Of a stretch of DNA of 53,590 nt, positions 2,060 to 46,099 are shown piece after piece. The first letter of the stretch is position 1; each line of letters opens with the position of its first letter. This DNA comes from Prorocentrum cordatum (Eukaryota): NCBI GenBank assembly GCA_963575745.1, contig CAUYUJ010000308.1, positions 62,001 through 115,590 on the forward strand, written 5' to 3'. The translations under genes and the position numbers were made by a program. The notes under the pieces are model-generated. The model was not told where the DNA came from, made no database searches, and saw nothing but the letters and a program-made list of their open reading frames with translations.

Positions 2060-2965
2060 CCCTTGTCGCTGGTTGGGGCCTCTTAGGCGCCTTTTAGGGC
2101 GTCCAGGAGGACTCCTGGAGTGGAAGGCTCGGATTCTCGGTTGGTGGTCTCCATCTTGGGCCTCTCTTGGGGCCCTCTTGGGGTCCTTTTGGGCCGTCTT
2201 GGGCGCCTCTTGCGCTGTCGTGGGCCTCTCTTGGACGGTCGTGGGCCTCTCTTGGAGGCCCCTTGGGCCGTCTTGGGGTGGTCTTGGAAGCTTCTTGGGC
2301 CGTCTTGGAGCGTCGGAAAGGCGAAAAGGCGAGGAAATCAAAAAGCTTGAAAGAACCAAATGGAAATCAATGGTTTTGGCGCTCTGAGGCTTCGTGGACG
2401 TTCATTGGGATCTCGTTGGATGCCTCTCGAGGGCTTCTTGGAGACTTTCGGGAGTCGTTGTCGAGCCTCTTGGGGTCTCTTTCGGGCCCCTCGTCGCCTT
2501 TTGGGGCCTCTTGGGGGCCTCTTGGAGCCTCCAGGAGGCCTCTTGGAGCGGAAGGCTCGGATTCTCGGTTCGTGGTCTCCATGTTGGGCCCCTCTTGGGG
2601 CCCTCTTGGGGTCCTTTTGGACCGTCTTGGGCGCCTCTTGGGCTGTCGTGGGGCCCTCTTGGGCGGTCTTGGGGCTCTCTTGGAGGCCTCTTGGGCCGTC
2701 TTGGGGTGGTTTTGGAGGCTTCTTGGGCCGTCTTGGAGCGTCGGAAACGCGAAAAGGCGAGGAAGCCAAAAACCTTGAAAAACCCAATGGGAATCAATGA
2801 TTTTGGCCTCTTGGGGCTCTCTTGGAAAGGGTCGGGGTTCTCTTGGGACGTCTTGGAAGCTTCTTGGGCCGTCTTGAGGCCGTGTTGGGCGTCTTGGGCC
2901 GATCAATCGGTGATTCGGAACCCTCTTGGACCGTCTTGGAAGCCTGTTGAGGCCCTCTTGGCGCG
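2060..2965. repeat. Dispersed low-complexity (GGGCCNTCTTG)-type repeat with an internal ~420-bp duplication
   Basis: Recurrent cctcttggg/ccgtcttgg units; 2095-2390 resembles 2520-2820. The same repeat type occurs at 43900-45110 (reverse) and 53060-53330. Confidence 0.85.
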
Positions 2966-3144
2966 CTCCGGGGAGCGTGGAAGGCCGCACCCAGGAGGAA
3001 AACCATCTCTGACCCGAGTCTGCCGGGAGTGTCCCGGGACCTTGCCGGGGTATTTTCCAGCCGGGGACCCCCAGGGGCCGCTCCGCGCGCGCGAAGTATA
3101 GAATTATTGTTAACCAGTTACCGGAGATCTTAGCATAGTCTGGG

Positions 3145-9914: not shown

Positions 9915-11505
9915 GTTCGGCACACCCCTCACACGGCTCGTGGCCCCATAGGGAGCTCCACCGAAGGCCTCAATGGCTGCGTCCTCATGCGTCACCGCAT
10001 CCATTACGGCACACCCCCCACACGGTTCGTGGCCCCATGGGGAGCTCCACCGAAGGCCCCAGTGGCTGCGTCCTCATGCGCCACCGCCACCCATTACGGC
10101 ACACCCCTCACACGGTTCGTGGCCCCATGGGGAGCTCCACCGAAGGCCCCAGTGGTTGCGTCCTCATGCGTCACCGCCACCCATTACGGCACACCCCTCA
10201 CACGGTTCGTCGCCCCATAGGGAGCTCCACCGAAGGCCCCAATGGTTGCGTCTTCATGCGTTACCGCCACCCATTACAGCACACCCCTCACACGGTTCGT
10301 GGCCCCATAGGGAGTTCCACCGAAGGCCCCAGTGGTTGTGTCCTCATGCGTTACCGCCACCGATTACGGCACGCCCCTCACACGGTTCGTGGCCCCACAG
10401 GGAGTTCCACCGAAGGCCTCAATGATTGCGTCCTCATGCGTTACCGCCACCCATTACGGCACGCCCCTCACACGGTTCGTGGCCCCATAGGGAGTTCCAC
10501 CGAAGGCCTCAATGGCTGCGTCCTCACTCGTCACCGCCACCCATTACGGCACACCCCTCACACGGTTCGTGGCCCCATGGGGAGCTCCACCGAAGGACCC
10601 AGTCGCTGCGTCCTCAAGCGTCACCGCCACCCATTACGGCACACCCTTCACACGGTTCGTGGCCCCATAGGGAGCTCCACCGAAGGCCCCAGTGGCTGCG
10701 TCCTCATGCGTTACCGCCACCCATTACGGCACACCCCCCACACGGTTCGTGGCCCAATAGGGAGCTCCACCGAAGGCCCCAAAACAGGCCCCAGTGGCTG
10801 CGTCCTCATGCGTCACCGCCACCCATTACGGCACACCCCCCACACGGTTCGTGGCCCCATGGGGAGCTCCACCGAAGGACCCAGTCGCTGCGTCCTCACT
10901 CGTCACCGCCACCCATTACGGCACACCCCTCACACGGTTCGTGGCCCCATAGGGAGCTCCACCGAAGGCCCCAGTGGCTGCGTCCTCATGCGTCACCGCC
11001 ACCCATTACGGCACACCCCTCACACGATTCGTGGCCCCATAGGGAGCTCCACCGAAGGCCCAAGTGGCTGCATCCTCATGCGTCACCGCCACCCATTACG
11101 GCACACCCCTCACACGGTTCGTGGCCCCATAGGGAGCTCCACCGAAGGCCTCAATGGTTGCGTCCTCGTGCGTCACCGCCACCCATTACGGCACACCCCT
11201 CACACGGTTCGTGGCCCCATAGGGAGCTCCACCGAAGGCCCCAGTGGCTGCGTCCTCAAGCGTCACCGCCACCCATTACTGCACACCCTTCACACGGTTC
11301 GTGGCCCCATAGGGAGCTCCATTGAACGCCCCAGTGGTTGCGTCCTCATGCGTCACTGCCACCCACTACGGCACACCCCTCACACGATTCGTGGCCCCAG
11401 AGGATGTTCCACCGAAAGCTCCAGTGGGAGGGTTCGCATGTCACCACCACGCCCAATCCGGCACGCCCCTCACTGTGCGTGGCCCCATAAGGAGCTCCAT
11501 CGGAA
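9817..11505. repeat. (CAT)n tract followed by a 90-bp minisatellite block (~17 units)
   Basis: Unit cacacccctcacacggttcgtggccccatagggagctccaccgaaggccccagtggctgcgtcctcatgcgtcaccgccacccattacgg at 90-bp periodicity. Confidence 0.95.
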
Positions 11506-16209: not shown

Positions 16210-17022
16210 CCATCATTATCGTCATCATCATCATCACCACCATCATCATCAGTTCGGCACATCCCTCATACCGTTCGTGGCCCCACAGGGAGCTCCACCG
16301 AAGGCCCCAATGGCTGCGTCCTCATGCGTCACCGCCACCCATTACGGCACACCCCCCACAGGGTTCGTGGCCCCATAGGGAGCTCCACCGAAGGCCCCAG
16401 TGGTTGCGTCCTCATGCGTCACCGCCACCCACTACGGCACACCCCTCACACGGTTCGTGGCCCCATAGGGAGCTCCACCGAAGGCCCCAGTGGCTGCGTC
16501 CTCATGCGTCACCGCCACCCATTACGGCACACCCCTCACACGGTTCGTGGCCCCATAGGGAGCTCCACCGAAGGCCCCAGTGGTTGCGTCCTCATGCGTC
16601 ACCGCCACCCATTACGGCACACCCCTCACGCGGTTCGTGGCCCCACAGGGAGGTCCACCGAAGGCCCCAGTGGCTGCGTCCTCATGCGTCACCGCCACCC
16701 ATTACGGCACACCCCTCACGCGGTTCGTGGCCCCATAGGGAGCTCCACCGAAGGCCCCAGAGGCTGCGTCCTCATGCGTCACCGCCACCCAATTCGGCAC
16801 ACCCCTCACGCGGTTCGTGGCCCTACAGGGAGGTCCACCGAAGGCCCCAGTGGCTGCGTCCTCAGAGCGTCACCGCCACCCACTACGGCACACCCCTCAC
16901 ACGGTTCGTGGCCCCAGAGGATGTTCCACCGAAGGCTCCAGTGGGAGGGTTCGCATGTCACCACCGCGCCCAATCCAGCACGCCCCTCACTGTGCGTGGC
17001 CCCATAAGGAGCTCCACCGAAA
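16210..17022. repeat. Short (CAT)n plus 90-bp minisatellite block (~8 units)
   Basis: Same 90-bp unit and same degenerate terminal units. Confidence 0.95.
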
Positions 17023-20000: not shown

Positions 20001-21983
20001 TTTCGGTTGGAGTGCGGGCGGGGAGGGGCCGGGCAGGCGGAAGGGAGGAGGAGCCATACCCGCGGTGAGCCAGCTTTTCCGAAGGCGCGGCACCGTCAAG
20101 CTTCATTCCGCCTGGTCCAACCGACCAGGGGTGTGGTTGACGAGACCATATTAGAAGTGCCATTGTGGCAGCATGTGCGCTCCCCCATTGCCCACTTGCC
20201 TTTGCAGCTGCAGGCTGCTGCCTTGTCATGCTTCCAGAGTGGTCTTGGAGTCAGTGCCATTGTCGACGAGCCAGCATCATGACCGAACGCCAATGACGAG
20301 TCCCACTCCTATTGGTTCAACCGAGCAGAGGGTGAGGATGACAAGTTTCAGCCTTGGCCGAGGCGTCATGGTGTGAACACATGCCATCTCCTCTGCTTGC
20401 CCCCTCCCCAGTGCCCCCCCGTGCTTCTGCATCTGCTGCCTGGACCGCCTTGCAGACCGCTCGTGGAACCATGGCCTTCATCGGGCGTGCTTTGTGTTGG
20501 TATCGTTCGTTCTTGTTGGCGCAACCGAGCCGAGGGTGAGGATGAAGTATTGCAGCCGTAGCCGAGGTCCTAATCTGCGTGTGCTGGCCATCGCCACGTT
20601 TTCGAGACGCCTGGATCGTCGTCAAATGGGTGTTGGCCAGATGGGCCTTGTTCTGGATCCATCTCGTTCCGAAGTCCTCCTCTTCCATCTCCGCTCCAGT
20701 GCCAACCTGGGAGGCCGCTCTGGGGTGCGCCTGGATTGCGGCCGCGCCGTTTTAACGGCCGGCAGCTTCTTCCATGAGGCGTCGGCTATCCAACCGCGCT
20801 ATAGCCACGCCAATGTCTGGCATGAAGCGCCCCACGTTGTTTTTTCAACCTGGGGCGTCATCAGCTCAGAGAACAGACAGCTCACAACCACTGCACGACT
20901 TGGGCGCCCCCTGCTGGGGTGGCGTGTGAATGTCCGTTTCGGTTGGAGTGCGGGCGGGGAGGGGCCGGGCAGGCGGAAGGGAGGAGGAGCCATACCCGCG
21001 GTGAGCCAGCTTTGCCGAATTTTCGGCACCGTCAAGCTTCATTCCGTCTGGTCCAACCGACCAAGGGGTGTGGTTGACGAGACCATATTAGAAGTGCCGT
21101 TGTGTCAGCATGTGCGCTCCCCCATTGCCCACTTGCCTTTGCAGCTGCAGGCTGCTGCCTTGTCATGCTTCCAGAGTGGTCTTGGAGTCAGTGCCATTGT
21201 CGACGAGCCAGCATCATGACCGAACGCCAATGACGAGTCCCACTCCTATTGGTTCAACCGAGCAGAGGGTGAGGATGACAAGTTTCAGCCTTGGCCGAGG
21301 CGTCATGGTGTGAACACATGCTATCTCCTCTACTTGCCCCCTCCCCAGTGCCCCCCCCGTGCTTCTGCATCTGCTGCCTGGACCGCCTTGCAGACCGCTC
21401 GTGGAACCATGACCTTCGACCTTCATCGGGCGTGCTTTGTGTTGGTATCGTTCTTTCTTGTCGGCACAACCGAGCCGAGGGTGAGGATGAAGTATTGCAG
21501 CCGTGGCCGAGGTCCTGTTCTGCGTGTGCTGGCCATCGCCACGTTTTCGAGACGCCTGGATCGTCGTCAAATGGGTGCTGGCCAGATGGGCCTTGTTCTG
21601 GATCCATCTCGTTCCGAAGTCCTCCTCCTCCATCTCCGCTCCAGTGCCAACCTGGGAGGCCGCTCTGGGGTGCGCCTGGATTGCGGCCGCGCCGTTTTAA
21701 CGGCCGGCAGCTTCTTCCATGAGGTGTCGGCTATCCAACCGCGCCATATTTTCTTGCCAATGTCTGGCATGAAGCGCCCCGTGCTGCTTTTTTTCAACCT
21801 GGGGCGTCATCCGCTCAGAGGACAGCTCACGTCCACTGCGCGACTTGGGCGCCCCCTGCTGGGGTGGCGTTCGAATGACCGTTTCGGTGGGAGTGCGGGC
21901 GGGGAGGGGCCGGGGCAGGCGGAAAGGAGGAGGAGCCATACCCGCGGTGAGCCAGCTTTTCCGAAGGCGCGGCACCGCCTTGT

Positions 21984-22443
21984 CCACCGAAGGCCCCAGT
22001 GGCTGCGTCCTCATGCGTCACCGCCACCCATTACGGCACCCCCCTCACACGGTTCGTGGCCCCATAGGGAGCTCCACCGAAGGCCCCAGTAGCTGCGTCC
22101 TCATGCATGCGTCACCGCCACCCATTATGGCACACCCTTCACACGGTTCGTGGCCCCATAGGGAGCTCCACCGAAGGCCCCAGTGGTTGCGTCTTCATGC
22201 GTCACCGCCACCCATTACGGCGCACCTCTCACACGGTTCGTGGCCCCATCGGGAGCTCCACCGAAGGCCCCAGTGGTTGCGTCTTCATGCGTCACCGCCA
22301 CCCACTACGGCACACAACTCACACATTTCGTGGCCCCAGAGGATGTTCCACCGAAGACTCCAGTGGGAGGGCTCGCATGTCACCACCACGCCCTCCGGCA
22401 CGCTCTTCACTGTGCGTGGCCCCACAAGGAGCTCCACCGAAAG
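21984..22443. repeat. 90-bp minisatellite block (~5 units) with no (CAT)n lead-in
   Basis: Same unit, entered directly from the satellite monomer at gccttgtcca|ccgaagg. Confidence 0.92.
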
Positions 22444-24160: not shown

Positions 24161-25510
<1,350 letters not shown>

Positions 25511-30346: not shown

Positions 30347-30833
30347 CACACGGTTCGTGGCCCCATAGGGAGCTCCACCGAAGGCCCCAGTGGCTGCGTC
30401 CTCATGCGTCACCGCCACCCATTACGGCACCCCCCTCACACGGTTCGTGGCCCCATAGGGAGCTCCACCGAAGGCCCCAGTAGCTGCGTCCTCATGCATG
30501 CGTCACCGCCACCCATTATGGCACACCCCTCACACGGTTCGTGGCCCCATAGGGAGCTCCACCGAAGGCCCCAGTGGTTGCGTCTTCATGCGTCACCGCC
30601 ACCCATTACGGCACACACCTCACACGGTTCGTGGCCCCATCGGGAGCTCCACCAAAGGCCCCAGTGGTTGCGTCTTCATGCGTCACCGCCACCCATTACG
30701 GCACACAACTCACACATTTCGTGGCCCCAGAGGATGTTCCACCGAAGACTCCAGTGGGAGGGCTCGCATGTCACCACCACGCCCTCCGGCACGCTCTTCA
30801 CTGTGCGTGGCCCCACAAGGAGCTCCACCGAAA
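30347..30833. repeat. 90-bp minisatellite block (~5 units), duplicate of 21984-22443
   Basis: Shares diagnostic variants (catgcatgcg, cacaactcacacatttcg) with the 22-kb block. Confidence 0.92.
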
Positions 30834-32659: not shown

Positions 32660-33850
32660 GTTCGGCACACCCCTCACACCGTTCGTGGCCCCACAGGGAG
32701 CTCCACCGAAGGCCCCAATGGCTGCGTCCTCATGCGTCACCGCCACCCATTACCGCACACCCCCCACAGGGTTCGTGGCCCCATAGGGAGCTCCACCGAA
32801 GGCCCCAGTGGCTGCGTCTTCATGCGTCACCGCCACCCATTACGGCACACCCCTCACACGGCTCGTGGCCCCATAGGGAGCTCCACCGAAGGCCCCAGTG
32901 GTTGCGTCCTCATGCGTCACCGCCACCCATTACGGCACACCCCTCACGCGGTTCGTGGCCCAATAGGGAGCTCCACCGAATTCATGCGTCACCGCGGCAC
33001 ACCCCTCACACGGTTCGTGGCCCCATAGGGAGTCCACCGAAGGCCCCAGTGGCTGCGTCCTCATGCGTCACCGCCACCCATTACGGCACACCCCTCACAC
33101 GGTTCGTGGCCCCATAGGGAGCTCCACCGAAGGCCCCAGTGGCTGCGTCCTCATGCGTCACCGCCACCCATTACGGCACACCCCTCACGCGGTTCGTGGC
33201 CCCATAGGGAGCTCCACCGAAGGCCCCAGTGGCTGCGTCCTCATGCGTCACCGCCACCCATACGGCACACCCCTCACACGGTTCGTGGCCCCATAGGGAG
33301 TCCACCGAAGGCCCCAGTGGGCTGCGTCCTCATGCGTCACCGCCACCCATTACGGCACACCCCTCACACGGTTCGTGGCCCATAGGGAGCTCCACCGAAG
33401 GCCCCAGTGGTTGCGTCGTCATGCGTCACCGCCACCCATTACGGCACACCCCTCACACGGCTCGTGGCCCCATAGGGAGGTCCACCGAAGGCCCCAGTGG
33501 CCGCGTCCTCATGCGTCACCGCCACCCATTACGGCACACCCCTCACACGGTTCGTGGCCCCATAGGGAGCTCCACCGAAGGCCCCAGAGGCTGCGTCCTC
33601 ATGCGTCACCGCCACCCATTACGGCACACCCCTCACGCGGTTCGTGGCCCTACAGGGAGTTCCACCGAAGGCCCCAGTGGCTGCGTCCTCAGAGCGTCAC
33701 CGCCACCCACTACGGCACACCCCTCACACGGTTCGTGGCCCCAGAGGATGTTCCACCGAAGGCTCCAGTGGGAGGGTTCGCATGTCACCACCGCGCCCAA
33801 TCCGGCACGCCCCTCACTGTGCGTGGCCCCATAAGGAGCTCCACCGAAAG
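32553..33850. repeat. (CAT)n plus 90-bp minisatellite block (~13 units)
   Basis: Same unit; parallels 24173-25510. Confidence 0.95.
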
Positions 33851-41931: not shown

Positions 41932-42206
41932 GTGACCACCGCCCAGAGGGTCAGTGTTCGGAGCCTCGGCAGGCGGTGGACATGGACATATATGCGGCCC
42001 CCCCGGGGGCAATACATATATATATATATATATGTATACATGTGTGTATATATATATATATTTATATTTATATTTATATATATGTATATGTATATGTATA
42101 TATATATATTTATATATATGTATATCTATGTATATATATGTATACATGTGTATATATACATATATATATATACATATCCACACCCACCGCCCGCTGGGGC
42201 ACCAGG
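41932..42206. repeat. Hairpin element copy 2 with an expanded (TA/TG)n microsatellite (42013-42177)
   Basis: Flanks match 40551-40666 (tgaccaccgcc..ttcggag..cctcggcaggcggtgga..; accgcccgctggggcaccagg). Confidence 0.85.
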
Positions 42207-42221: not shown

Positions 42222-42243
42222 TCCGTAGCCATTTTGGTTCAAG
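42222..42243 (+). other. Relict dinoflagellate spliced leader (DinoSL) in genomic DNA
   Basis: TCCGTAGCCATTTTGGTTCAAG vs the consensus DCCGTAGCCATTTTGGCTCAAG is 21/22; it ends 63 nt upstream of the PPR ATG. Confidence 0.93.
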
Positions 42244-42306: not shown

Positions 42307-43810
42307 ATGCAGAAAAGCTTGAAGGGGTCTCGGCAGGGTGCCTCCGTCAAAGGTGCGATCGACAAGTGTGGGGCCGCAAAGCAATGGATTGCAGCGCTGC
42401 GACTGCTGCGCGAGGCGTCCCAACCACATGCGGATTGCAGCCTCAGTCTGTATTGTGTGACCGTAGGCATATGCGGAAAAAGCAAACAGTGGCGACATGC
42501 GCTGTCGCTTTTCAGGGAGCTGGCTGGCATGATGCTGGAGCCAGACGTCATCTGCTACAGCAGCGGTATCAGCGCGTGCGGAAATGCCAATCAGTGGCAG
42601 CAGGCGCTGTGGCTGCTCAGGGAGATGTGGTCGCTGGATCTAATGCCAGACCACATTAGCTACACCGCTGGGATCAGCGCGTGCAGCACAGGTGTAGAGT
42701 GGCAGCGGGCACTGTTCTTGATCAGCGAGATGCGGGAGGTGAGATTGGAGCCGAACGGCTTTAGTTACAGCTGCGGGATTAGCGCCTGCGGGAAATGCGG
42801 GCAGTGGCAGCCTGCGCTGTCGTTGCTCAGGGAAGCGTGGGAGGCGAGGTTGGAGCCAAATGTGATCAGCTGCAATGCTGCGATCAGCGCGTGCGAGAAA
42901 GGCAGGCAGTGGGAGCAGGCGCTGTCGCTGCTTGGCGAGATGCGGGAGGGGGCACTGGAACTCAACGTTAGGAGCTACAATGCTGGGATCAGCGCGTGCG
43001 AAACATGTGCGCAGTGGCAGCAAGCATTATCGTTGCTCGGCGAGATACGGGATGTGAAGTTGGATTTGGACGTTTTCAGCTACAGCGGCGGAATCAGCGC
43101 GTGCGGGAAAGGCGGGCAATGGCAGCAGGCGTTGTCGCTGTTCAACGAGATGTGGCAAGCGAAGTTGGAGTTGGATGTCGTTTGCTGCAGTGGGGGCGTC
43201 AGCGCGTGCGAGAAAGGCGGGCAGTGGCAGCAGGCGCTGTCGCTGCTAAGTGGGATGTGGGACGCGACGATGAAACCAGACGCCTTCATCTACGGTGCTG
43301 GGATCAGCGCGTGCGAGAAAGGCGGGCAGTGGGAGCAAGCGATGTCGCTGCTCAGCGAGATGCGAAACGTGAAATTGCAGCTTGACATTGTATGCTCCAG
43401 TGGCGCGATCAGCGCCTGCGAAAAATGCGGGCAGTGGCAGCAGGCACTGTCATTGCTCGGCAAGATGCGGGAGGCGAAGTTGAAGCCAGACGTCACCAGC
43501 TACAGCGCTGCGATCAGCGCATGTGAGAAAGGTGGACCGTGGCAGCACGCGCTGTCGCTGCTTAGCGAGATGCGGGAGGTTGAATTGAGACCAAACGTCA
43601 TCAGTTACACTGGTGTGATCCGCGTGTTCGGAGTAGGCGGGCAGTGGCAGCAGGCGTTGTCGATATTGGGCGACATGTTAGCGGCAACGCTAAAATTTGA
43701 CGTCCTCTGCTGCAATGAAGGAATCAACGCGTGTCAGAAAGGCGGGCAGTGGCAGCAAGCGTTGGCGGTGATCGGGCAGATGCAGGAGGCGAGCGTGGAG
43801 CCAGACATCA
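42307..43810 (+). CDS. P-class pentatricopeptide repeat (PPR) protein, 5' part (repeats 1-14), probable retrogene
   Basis: Tandem 35-aa repeats [34 protein letters not shown], uninterrupted for 1.5 kb; ATG at 42307. Confidence 0.93.
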
Positions 43811-45436
43811 TCTCTTCTACATGGCCGGTGGAAGCGCGTGCGAGAAGCCCAGGGCCTCAAGTGCACAACATCGTCCCTTTCCGGCGCCAACACGGGGCCG
43901 AATCGCTCAGGTCAGTCCCAGAGGCGCTCCAGAGGGGTTCCCAGACCGTCCAAGAGCGCTCCAAGTCGACCTCAGTGGGTCCCGAGACGGCCCACGAGGG
44001 CCCGAAGCCTTCCCGGGGTGGCTCCACGACGATCCATGAGGCCGCAAAGACGCCCCAAGAGGGCCCCGAGCGCACGCCAAAGAGTCACAAATCGTCAAAT
44101 TCCGATAGGAAAACGTATATTTTCAGCATGCCCGCCTTATGTGCTCCTCAGTGGCCCGGGACACGCCAAGAGGCCTCCCAAATCGCTCCAAGAAGACGCC
44201 AGCAGCCCCTAAGAGGGCTCCAAGACGGCCCACAAGAGCCCCAAGACGACGCCAGAGAGCCCTGAAACGGCCTCACAGAACCCCAAGACGGCCCCAAGAG
44301 AACTCCTAGGGGGCCCCGAGTGGCTCCCAAGACGGCCTCAGGCAGCCTCAAGAGAGCTCCAAGACGGTCCAAGGCCTACCGGACGCCCCGTGACGGCCCA
44401 AAACGGCACCAAGACGTCCCAAAACGCTCCCAGAGCAGCCCAAACAAGCTTCTGAATGGCCCGAGAAAGACCCCCACAAGGACCACCAAGCAGGTCCAGA
44501 GACGCCCATTAAAAGAGCGATCGGTGAAGTACAAAGCTCTTCTCACCAAGTCTCCCAAGAGCGGGCCGCAGGCCCTGGTGCGCTTCGAAGATGGCCAACG
44601 AGCGCTCCGAGATGCCCCCGGAGGCCCCCAAGAGGGCCCCAAGGGGGTCCAAGACCGTCCAAGAGAGACTCCAAGGCGCCCAAGATTCCTTCTACACGGC
44701 TTCAGACGCCTCCGGAACGTCCCGACGGGGCTCCGAGAAGGGCCCCGAGAGGGCCCAAACAAGAACAAATCGTCACAATCCCCAGGGAAAACTTGCATTT
44801 TTGTAATTCCCGTGCTTTTCGTCTCCGACGCTTCCACGACGGCCATACAGGCTCCCAAGAGTGTTTAAGATCCCCAGGCCAGCCGCATGAGGGCCCCAAG
44901 ACAGCCCAACACAGCATCCAGACGGGTCCTGAGGCGCTCATGACAGCCCACGAGCCATCCAAGACAGCCTCAAGAGCTGCCCAAGATGCTCCAAGACGGC
45001 GCCAAGACGATCTTAGCCGAAAAGCTCCAAACTCCATGGACTGCCGACAACCTCGAGAGCGTCCAGGAGGCCGAAAGAAGCTCCGAGAAGCTCCCAAACT
45101 ATCCCTAGGAGAAGACAGCGCCCGCCTTCTGGTTTCTACAAGACAAACAACACAGTTTCCGGATCCGGACACGCTTCGTGGCCGCATCCGGACCGCTGCC
45201 CTTCTCCGTGGGTGCGGGCGCCCGCCGTCACGCTTCACCCAGGCAACTGGGAAGACCTCACCACAGCTTTCCGGGCGTACCCCGCCCACGGATCTTCGCC
45301 GTACTTAGAGCGCTGCTCTTCTCCGTGGGTGCGGGCGCGAGAGCGCGAAGGTATGCGCGTATGGCACGGAGCTGCGCTGTGGAGGCGCACCAGGGGGACC
45401 TGAAGGTCGTGGGCGAAGTCCACGGGTTCGCCCTAG
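43811..45436 (+). mobile_element. Non-autonomous Helitron-like insertion (1626 bp)
   Basis: Starts TC, ends CTAG and sits between A(43810) and T(45437). Hairpin CGTGGGC-GAA-GTCCACG (45408-45424) ends 12 nt before the 3' end. Removal restores [13 protein letters not shown]. No RepHel ORF is visible. Confidence 0.85.
43900..45110. repeat. (CCCAAGANGG)-type low-complexity repeat inside the Helitron-like element
   Basis: Reverse complement of the 2060-2965 repeat type. Confidence 0.75.
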
Positions 45437-45744
45437 TCAGCTACAACGCTGGGATCAGCGCGTGCGAGAAAGGCATGCAGTGGCAGCGGGCTCTGGTGTT
45501 GCTGAGCGAGATGCTGGAGGCGAAGCTGGTGCCCGACGTCATCAGCTGCCACACTGCGACCAGGGCTTGCGACAGAAGCGGGCAGGTGCAGCAAGCGATC
45601 TGGCTTCTCACCGCGACGCGGAATGCGAAGCTCGAGTCCCACGTCGCCAGCCTCAGCGATGCCATGGTGATTGCGATGCAGAGGTCAGCGTTGCGCAGTT
45701 CCAGCCGCAATCCCGAGACCCGCGCGCGCGAGAGACGCGGGTAG
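45437..45744 (+). CDS. PPR protein, 3' part (repeats 15-16 and C-terminus)
   Basis: [57 protein letters not shown]...ERRG*; continues exactly from 43810. Confidence 0.88.
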
Positions 45745-46099
45745 CCACGGCAGGCCATGCCGCTGGTCGAGGACGAGCCGACGACGGAGACCACAGCCAC
45801 CCTTGCTGCACGCGATACAGTAGGGGTCTTGAAGAAAGAACCCTTTTCGTTGGGGAGGGGCTCGGTGTTCCTGGGTTGTTCGACAGTTTGCCTTCTGTTT
45901 TCTTGAGGTTTTCCATGGGAAATCGAAGTTCAACTTATGGGAGAAGGGGGCCCCGTTCCTTAGTTAGATTTCCTTGGGTCAACGCCCCGACTGTACTGGG
46001 CAGCGCGCGTGCCGCCGGGGCCCGCTGGCTGCAGACGGCCTGGCCCTGGGCGGCAGAGCTGCGCCCCGGGGGGCGCCTCGGCCGCGGGCGTCCAGGTCT

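Follow-up and report, generated by a model that had tools for sequence, protein, structure and literature searches.

A probable decayed PPR unit, enlarged by satellite DNA and apparently removed from RNA, in place of a proposed Helitron in a Prorocentrum cordatum PPR gene

The PPR gene and the segment that interrupts it

The 53,590-nt stretch of the dinoflagellate Prorocentrum cordatum analyzed here (NCBI GenBank assembly GCA_963575745.1, contig CAUYUJ010000308.1, positions 62,001 to 115,590 of the forward strand; hereafter the window, numbered from its first letter) is GC-rich (about 0.6) and contains one gene for a pentatricopeptide repeat (PPR) protein, on the + strand. The PPR frame opens with the ATG at 42307, proceeds in in-register 105-nt units up to A43810, and restarts at T45437 to close with a TAG stop. 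Between these two points lies the segment that is the subject of this report. A first-pass annotation, made from the letters of the window, had read it as a 1626-bp Helitron inserted between two PPR repeats. The break at 43810, the restart at 45437 and the length it gave are borne out by the + strand frame and by Pfam matching to PPR families. The gene and its surroundings are laid out as follows.

42223..42243, + strand: spliced-leader relict, 21 of 22 nt of the dinoflagellate leader with 1 mismatch, 64 nt 5' of the ATG
42307..43810, + strand: exon 1, the N-terminal part and the 105-nt PPR units, closing with ...EPDI plus the first base of the Ile codon
43811..45436, + strand: intervening sequence of 1626 nt (3 × 542), TC..CTAG, with A before it and T after it, missing from contigs that join 43810 to 45437
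45437..45744, + strand: exon 2, in which two PPR units are followed by a C-terminal tail and the stop TAG at 45742-45744

Exon 1 is matched by Pfam PPR_2 at 196 bits against a cut-off of 30 (E = 6e-59) and by PPR at 156 bits, in tandem 35-residue motifs that score above the cut-off. Exon 2 alone comes in under it, at 20 bits against 30. The nearest proteins to the gene are almost all from Prorocentrum cordatum, and the best protein match to exon 2 is P0122 (P. cordatum), with 87% identity over 98%. In the protein collection at 278-888 residues, neither a relative of exon 1 above 50% identity nor the gene itself was found.

The leader sequence as printed in PMC5585692 has one match in the window when up to 3 mismatches are allowed, and none in 100 shuffles, so that the relict at 42223-42243 is the sole one of its kind here. 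In that paper, Song et al. take a leader relict at most 500 nt upstream of an open reading frame as the sign of a retrogene; the relict lies inside that distance and also inside the zone from -50 to -100 where such relicts of the dinoflagellate spliced leader (DinoSL) are best kept. Because a near-complete relict stands 64 nt before the ATG, the PPR gene is read here as a retrogene, a recycled cDNA copy. Such retrogenes are mostly intron-poor, whereas this one carries a 1.6-kb intervening sequence. The same authors allow that retrocopies may keep introns, and the relict is therefore no proof that the gene was born intron-less.

Two further observations concern the gene itself. Just 5' of it, at 42012-42177, is an (AT)n-rich tract of 166 nt. 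In exon 2, the M of EKGMQWQ (45472-45474) is Met in all the tail-type paralogues (the window gene, P0122, P0131 and P0130), and ordinary units have G, E, K or Q at that position; this Met may be particular to the family, or may serve as an internal start.

Ends and interior of the segment

The segment can be divided into two arms that flank a long interior.

43813..43848, + strand: 5' arm, part 1, a PPR-unit start shifted by 2 nt after a duplicated TC, read out of frame as YMAGGSACEK and in frame +1 as LFYMAGGSACEK
43847..43885, + strand: 5' arm, part 2, which shares homology with the central part of short elements described below, in frame 0 AQGLKCTTSSLSG compared with SQGLVCTKSPLYG of P0235
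43886..45100, + strand: interior filler, built of degenerate CCAAGACGGCCC-type repeats of 10.5/21 nt that form two higher-order copies at a spacing of about 680 nt
45191-45221 and 45308-45338, + strand: two direct repeats of 31 nt, 29/31 identical, within 45191..45338, non-satellite, relatives not found
45379..45436, + strand: 3' arm, VEAHQGDLKVVGEVHGFALV in the exon-2 frame, holding the 7-bp palindrome 45411-45433 and ending in CTAG, conserved before SYNAG in other Prorocentrum PPR models

The TC...CTAG ends and the A|T flanks on which the Helitron proposal was built are present. TC stands on both sides of the junction, however, so that the junction can be slid by up to 2 nt, and a 2-nt duplication or a slid junction fits these flanks equally well. 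Joining 43810 to 45437 loses or gains no base, as had been claimed. The join is seamless, but it is weak evidence for an insertion, because equal registers of two units in a tandem array always join in this way.

The 17-nt hairpin said to end 12 nt from the 3' end is also there, at 45408-45424, with only 5 bp (CGTGG/CCACG). The most stable fold is instead a 7-bp stem, GGGCGAA/TTCGCCC at 45411-45433, which stops 3 nt short of the end and takes in the C of CTAG. As DNA the last 40 nt fold with -10.9 kcal/mol, a value that none of 500 dinucleotide shuffles equals and that falls in the top 1% of the 40-nt windows of the segment. Also confirmed is the subterminal direct repeat near 45195 and 45312, listed above. 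Terminal inverted repeats were not found in the segment, the best pairing of its ends being 7 of 8 bp, and an end-to-end duplex of the segment is no better than shuffles, 56 of 500 being as good.

The window has no second copy of the segment termini, and the 5 long frames of the segment that were tested (5/5) have neither RepHel nor any other Pfam domain. In metagenome contigs, scans with the 3' terminus and with the end of exon 1 each gave 0 matches, as did a degenerate 3'-arm/exon-2 pattern in genome contigs and viral contigs. A 110-residue translation of 45109-45438 was compared by HMMER with 1.84 billion representatives, and the one match was to an unrelated repeat protein.

The two higher-order copies of the interior filler share a spacer motif at 44088 and 44766, for which 0.01 matches would be expected by chance. 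The interior is a dispersed satellite-like repeat of the genome, together with some unique DNA.

The window is rich in repeats at other places as well. On the minus strand at 2100-3000 there is another block of 10.5/21-nt repeats of the CCAAGACGGCCC type, the same kind as in the interior, with an AT-richer spacer and a period of about 420 nt. Between 9700 and 34000 there are six arrays of a 90-nt tandem repeat (9918-11499, 16255-17021, 21983-22366, 24298-25508, 30347-30757 and 32663-33848), three of them with (CAT)n in front, which points to a large tandem duplication of higher order, on a scale of several kb. The window itself begins with (AGTGAGT)n, 129 copies at 1-903.

Homology of the two arms

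PPR homology does not stop at 43810 and extends 36 nt past it, into the segment, which places the 5' TC in PPR-derived DNA. The PPR likeness of 43813-43848 is scored by nhmmer at E = 0.027, and its local alignment is better than 300 of 300 shuffles. Compared with the 14 units of the gene, this piece is 42-69% identical, and the units among themselves average 70%. It was considered whether the piece might be a long target duplication of the start of the downstream unit, and this was rejected, as the two are 69% identical and the piece is no closer to that unit than to another. It is thus one more PPR unit and no target duplication.

Both parts of the 5' arm have matches in proteins elsewhere. 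The peptide of the second part is identical to that of P0235 at 8 of 13 positions, a score that 0 of 300 shuffles reach, and the MAGGSACEK at the N-terminus of P0227 is identical to the first part at 9 of 9. The C-terminus of P0255 was tried as a match to the 5' end of the segment and rejected as not significant (19 of 300 shuffles at best).

For the 3' arm, searches with exon 2 returned 72 and 79 proteins. In 32 proteins, from at least 31 loci, SY(N/S)AGISACEKG is directly preceded by the peptide ..VHG(S/F)(A/T)LV, which is the in-frame reading of the last 30-40 nt of the segment. The 32 are what is left of 39 rows once the protein of the window itself, a false positive from Polarella and 5 cluster mates are taken out; 8 are named P. 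cordatum, 1 is labelled Pyramimonas in EukProt, and the rest are ENA records. When unit starts are taken with no pre-selection, xALV or xTLV comes before 34 of 254 in-frame starts in a Prorocentrum-rich set versus 0 of 39 in a set mostly from other dinoflagellates, figures that are not genome-wide rates, the query having favored short models that open at a unit start. A preference of the element for one PPR register, as the first-pass annotation proposed, is thus supported in spirit by other proteins.

The first ~75 nt and the last ~60 nt of the segment recur nearly adjacent in other PPR models, spanning about one PPR period and always at the I|S register. P0227 (P. cordatum) opens with MAGGSACEK-GSQGLVLAQDD-VDEVHGFALV, in which 11 residues separate MAGGSACEK from VDEVHGFALV, and continues with SYNAG. 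P0235 has SQGLVCTKSPLYG-DADEVHGFALV followed by SCNAG, and P0259 has exactly 35 residues from ..EPDAI to SYNAG. Since these short forms join both arms within about one PPR period, the window copy is such a unit with an interior of ~1.5 kb added.

The tail-type exon 2 has counterparts in P0122 (82% across the full alignment) and P0131 (62%), paralogues in which the frame is open and free of indels, and both carry the 3' arm before it. On this comparison, the element is older than these two paralogues. The 3' arm does not track the host. P0211 matches the window at 19 of 20 residues of the arm and at 5 of 35 in the second downstream unit, and P0122 matches at 6 of 13 in the arm and at 33 of 35 downstream. 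Many P. cordatum gene models open at an M inside the 3' arm (MDGVHGSALV..).

Whole units out of frame are encountered in P. cordatum PPR proteins such as P0015, P0070, P0148, P0211 and P0243, in either the +1 frame (..TTLGSARARR..) or the +2 frame (..LQRWDQRVREGRAVAAG..), and the out-of-frame runs return to frame exactly at unit boundaries. When 231 unit ends were classified, the next unit was in the +1 frame in 14 and in the +2 frame in 11. These are either decayed units, unit-sized unrecognized introns, or assembly indels.

RNA-derived contigs

Contigs of four RNA runs were compared with the locus, namely X17 (polyA RNA), X1 (kind not on record), X2 and X5. The joint from 43810 to 45437 is found in one contig each of X17 and X1, hence in 2 of 4 runs and from two studies, with 2 letters that fit either side. 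Both of these runs have zero depth over 43942-45415. Contigs with 0 differences from the locus lie on both sides of the segment, at 43633-43807 (X1 and X2) and at 45516-45665 and 45636-45811 (X1, X2 and X5). The idea that the terminal AG might let the element be spliced out thus has support in contigs that join the flanking exons without the segment, their locus of origin being unproven.

None of the four runs has a depth as high as 1 over 43808-43941. There are many contigs that arrive at 45437 from a different PPR end, and many that differ by 2-5%. In word content of 43300-45900, 20 runs carry 0.05-0.28 and none reaches half, the exons making up about 0.37 of that stretch.

If the joint is an intron border, the three possible registers open with TC, CT or TC, and none of them is a GT, GC or GA donor. 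A canonical alternative, CAG|GTCAGT (43911) with an AG at 45440, would keep the frame, and so would 20 further G(T/C/A)..AG pairs near the segment ends; all were rejected, as none yields the observed joint. One X2 contig skips 206 nt in the 3' untranslated region, at 45803-46010, between two TGC triplets. This looks like an indel between copies and not like splicing, because no register gives an AG end.

Interpretation and alternatives

Taking these results together, the 1.6-kb stretch is unlikely to be a Helitron and is probably a decayed PPR unit that satellite DNA has enlarged. It belongs to a family present at the same spot in many Prorocentrum PPR genes, and it is apparently removed from RNA. 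The fuller form of this reading, that a degenerate, satellite-inflated PPR pseudo-unit acts as an intron whose UC..AG border is non-canonical and carries a boundary repeat of 2 nt, is the one we favor, and we judge it about equally apt to hold or to fail. Under it, a degenerate out-of-frame pseudo-unit of PPR period would stand between the main 105-nt array and the last two units of the retrogene, inflated from ~105 nt to 1.6 kb by an internal 10.5/21-nt satellite-like block and unique DNA. At no fewer than 31 other PPR loci of Prorocentrum, the same Ile|Ser register is occupied by pseudo-units that share the 5' arm (YMAGGSACEK..SQGL..) and the 3' arm (..VHG(F/S)(A/T)LV). The whole segment would leave the RNA with 43810 joined to 45437, UC at its 5' end, AG at its 3' end and the 2-nt repeat at the boundary, and the resulting message would encode an uninterrupted PPR array and tail.

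The structure of the segment, its family, the sign of a retrogene and the joined contigs from RNA are shown directly; that the joint arises from splicing of the locus's own transcript is inferred. With a length of about one PPR period and a PPR-like start, the short versions argue for a degenerate repeat unit spread by duplication or recombination and not for a transposon; the family would have spread through unit or gene duplication and through gene conversion between PPR arrays, with no part for a transposase. A broader proposal is that Prorocentrum PPR genes hold "repeat-unit introns", decayed units of which some are satellite-inflated, cut at unit boundaries through UC..AG and copied by homology to the same register elsewhere. 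This we put forward tentatively and regard as doubtful.

Several points weigh against the decayed-unit intron. In the 3' arm, likeness to PPR at the DNA level falls short of significance, as 165 of 300 shuffles do as well as the last 120 nt and 266 of 300 as well as the last 60 nt, and nhmmer finds nothing there, so that its PPR ancestry rests on peptide resemblance to the ends of out-of-frame units, and the family evidence is read from predicted proteins and not from DNA. The shorter sides of the contigs with the joint are only 33 letters (X17) and 18 letters (X1), and the row of the joint is flagged "between: not known". X2 and X5 lack the joint; they also lack cover over 43942-45281, and these absences are not counted as evidence. 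X2 alone has an unexplained depth of 2.43 over 45282-45415, which could be unspliced precursor, DNA carry-over or another start. An X17 contig fits the locus up to 43812 and then runs into a different PPR unit, which means that close paralogues are expressed, and contigs cannot name the locus they come from. The acceptor AG at 45435-45436 is followed by T and not by the usual G. Finally, no donor lacking an initial G is described for core dinoflagellates, the reviews listing GT, GC and GA, with other borders reported only in Amoebophrya.

The locus might instead be a dead retrocopy, its array broken by a frameshifted unit and satellite expansion, unspliced and perhaps unexpressed, with the RNA contigs coming from intact paralogues or from another strain, and we consider this rather unlikely, but the most probable of the alternatives. 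The spliced-leader relict does mark a retrocopy, the border is non-canonical, the gene is missing from the protein collection at the lengths searched, and out-of-frame units are plentiful in P. cordatum PPR models (14 and 11 of 231 unit ends, as given above), in a way that looks like widespread decay. The expressed close paralogues, seen in the contig that diverges after 43812 and in the many contigs that differ by 2-5%, belong on the same side. A copy free of the segment would, however, need flanks identical to the locus, given the 0-difference contigs on both sides, and it would have to have lost, precisely and in register, a pseudo-unit still present in P0122 and P0131, the nearest paralogues. 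Exon 2 is open and indel-free in both of those, and a contig joined across the segment appears in 2 of the 4 runs.

The other alternatives make the segment a mobile element. A non-autonomous introner-like element that inserts at the Ile|Ser unit boundary with a 2-nt TC duplication, is an intron on arrival, and is possibly guided by its PPR-like 5' arm strikes us as unlikely. Dinoflagellate introner-like elements, as described by Roy et al. (10.1101/2020.10.14.339549) and Gozashti et al. (PMC12130899), are likewise multi-copy intervening sequences with conserved ends, in which the intron opens in the first copy of a short boundary repeat, ends in AG ahead of the second, exonic copy, and is missing from RNA. 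In the PPR family both arms are conserved at many loci around variable interiors, and the similarity of the 3' arm does not follow that of the host (P0211 against P0122), a mismatch that is one comparison made from proteins. The described classes have G-initial (GH..) duplications of 3-8 nt, whereas the repeat here is TC, 2 nt, and the segment has neither terminal inverted repeats nor an end-to-end duplex better than shuffles. The criteria of Farhat et al., which were also applied to P. cordatum, ask for inverted repeats (8-20 nt) as well as direct repeats (3-5 nt) at most 30 nt from the intron ends, where the segment has its 2-nt direct repeat. Introners should also have many similar copies that form introns in different genes, and here both arms are seen in other gene models only as peptides, in the 32 proteins. 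The ends of the segment resemble a decayed PPR unit, the short forms are one PPR period long with a PPR-like 5' end, as expected of such a unit, and copies are known only at one register of one repeat family, in PPR arrays where recombination can copy them. Least probable of all, and in our view very improbable, is the non-autonomous canonical Helitron of the first-pass annotation, inserted between A and T without target duplication. With the canonical element HLE1 (PMC11417382) the segment shares the TC start, the CTAG end, the A|T flanks and a palindrome near the 3' end, here a significant one; the 3' end is also conserved at other loci, and one dinoflagellate, Symbiodinium microadriaticum, has a recorded RepHel (PMC8788227). 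That RepHel, however, falls in the Helentron/Helitron2 clade, a group with terminal inverted repeats and T|T insertion and not with TC..CTRR, and terminal TC/CTRR signals are often false positives (PMC11417382). In the window the 5' terminus lies in host-repeat-derived DNA in register with the target, the first 36 nt being PPR-derived, and so is not a family-specific 5' end; a single 2-nt repeat accounts for both the TC and the T flank; the stable stem is atypically placed, ending 3 nt from the end with the C of CTAG inside it, and the stem at 12 nt has only 5 bp. Neither RepHel nor any other Pfam domain is found in the segment, nor a second copy in the window, and the relatives seen through proteins all have PPR flanks, with no known copies in unrelated ones. 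Of the earlier proposal, the register preference (in spirit) and the splicing-out idea have support, and the Helitron call has none that holds.

Comparison with described introns

The decayed-unit intron can also be set beside intron families in which the border is unusual. Introns and introners of Amoebophrya (Farhat et al., PMC7789003) have borders that are neither GT-AG nor GC/GA-AG, have short direct repeats overlapping the borders, and are missed by standard predictors, all of which is shared. They belong to a basal parasitic lineage, have direct repeats of 3-5 nt and inverted repeats of 8-20 nt, and average 120-240 nt, whereas the segment has no inverted repeat, is 1.6 kb long, and lies in a core dinoflagellate host. 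Introns with an identically repeated intron boundary (IRIB; Mendez et al., PMC5032977) have a border repeat of 2-9 nt that is kept once in the mRNA and leaves the exact cut ambiguous, as the 2-nt TC does here, but they hold AG|G at both sites, and the segment has no G at the donor or after the acceptor. The segment shares the layout of known intron families and not their defining repeats or a G-initial donor. A literature search outside subscription journals found no paper on PPR-boundary introns or on Helitrons in Prorocentrum PPR genes. For the P. cordatum annotation, donors were restricted to GT, GC and GA (10.1101/2022.07.25.501386), and this fits the many gene models that open at an M inside the 3' arm.

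Implications

If the segment is not spliced, the gene would be an ordinary decaying retrocopy, and the locus would illustrate that TC..CTRR ends and a seamless join within a tandem repeat are weak evidence for a Helitron. If the repeat-unit-intron reading is true, a core dinoflagellate would have a non-canonical class of introns that current annotation misses, with PPR genes fragmented as a result. True splicing here would mean that a core dinoflagellate uses borders outside GT/GC/GA-AG, so far reported only for the parasite Amoebophrya, and that a repeat protein is able to shed a ruined unit at the RNA level. It would also explain the many short P. cordatum PPR models that start inside the element, and would provide a concrete rule by which such models could be repaired.

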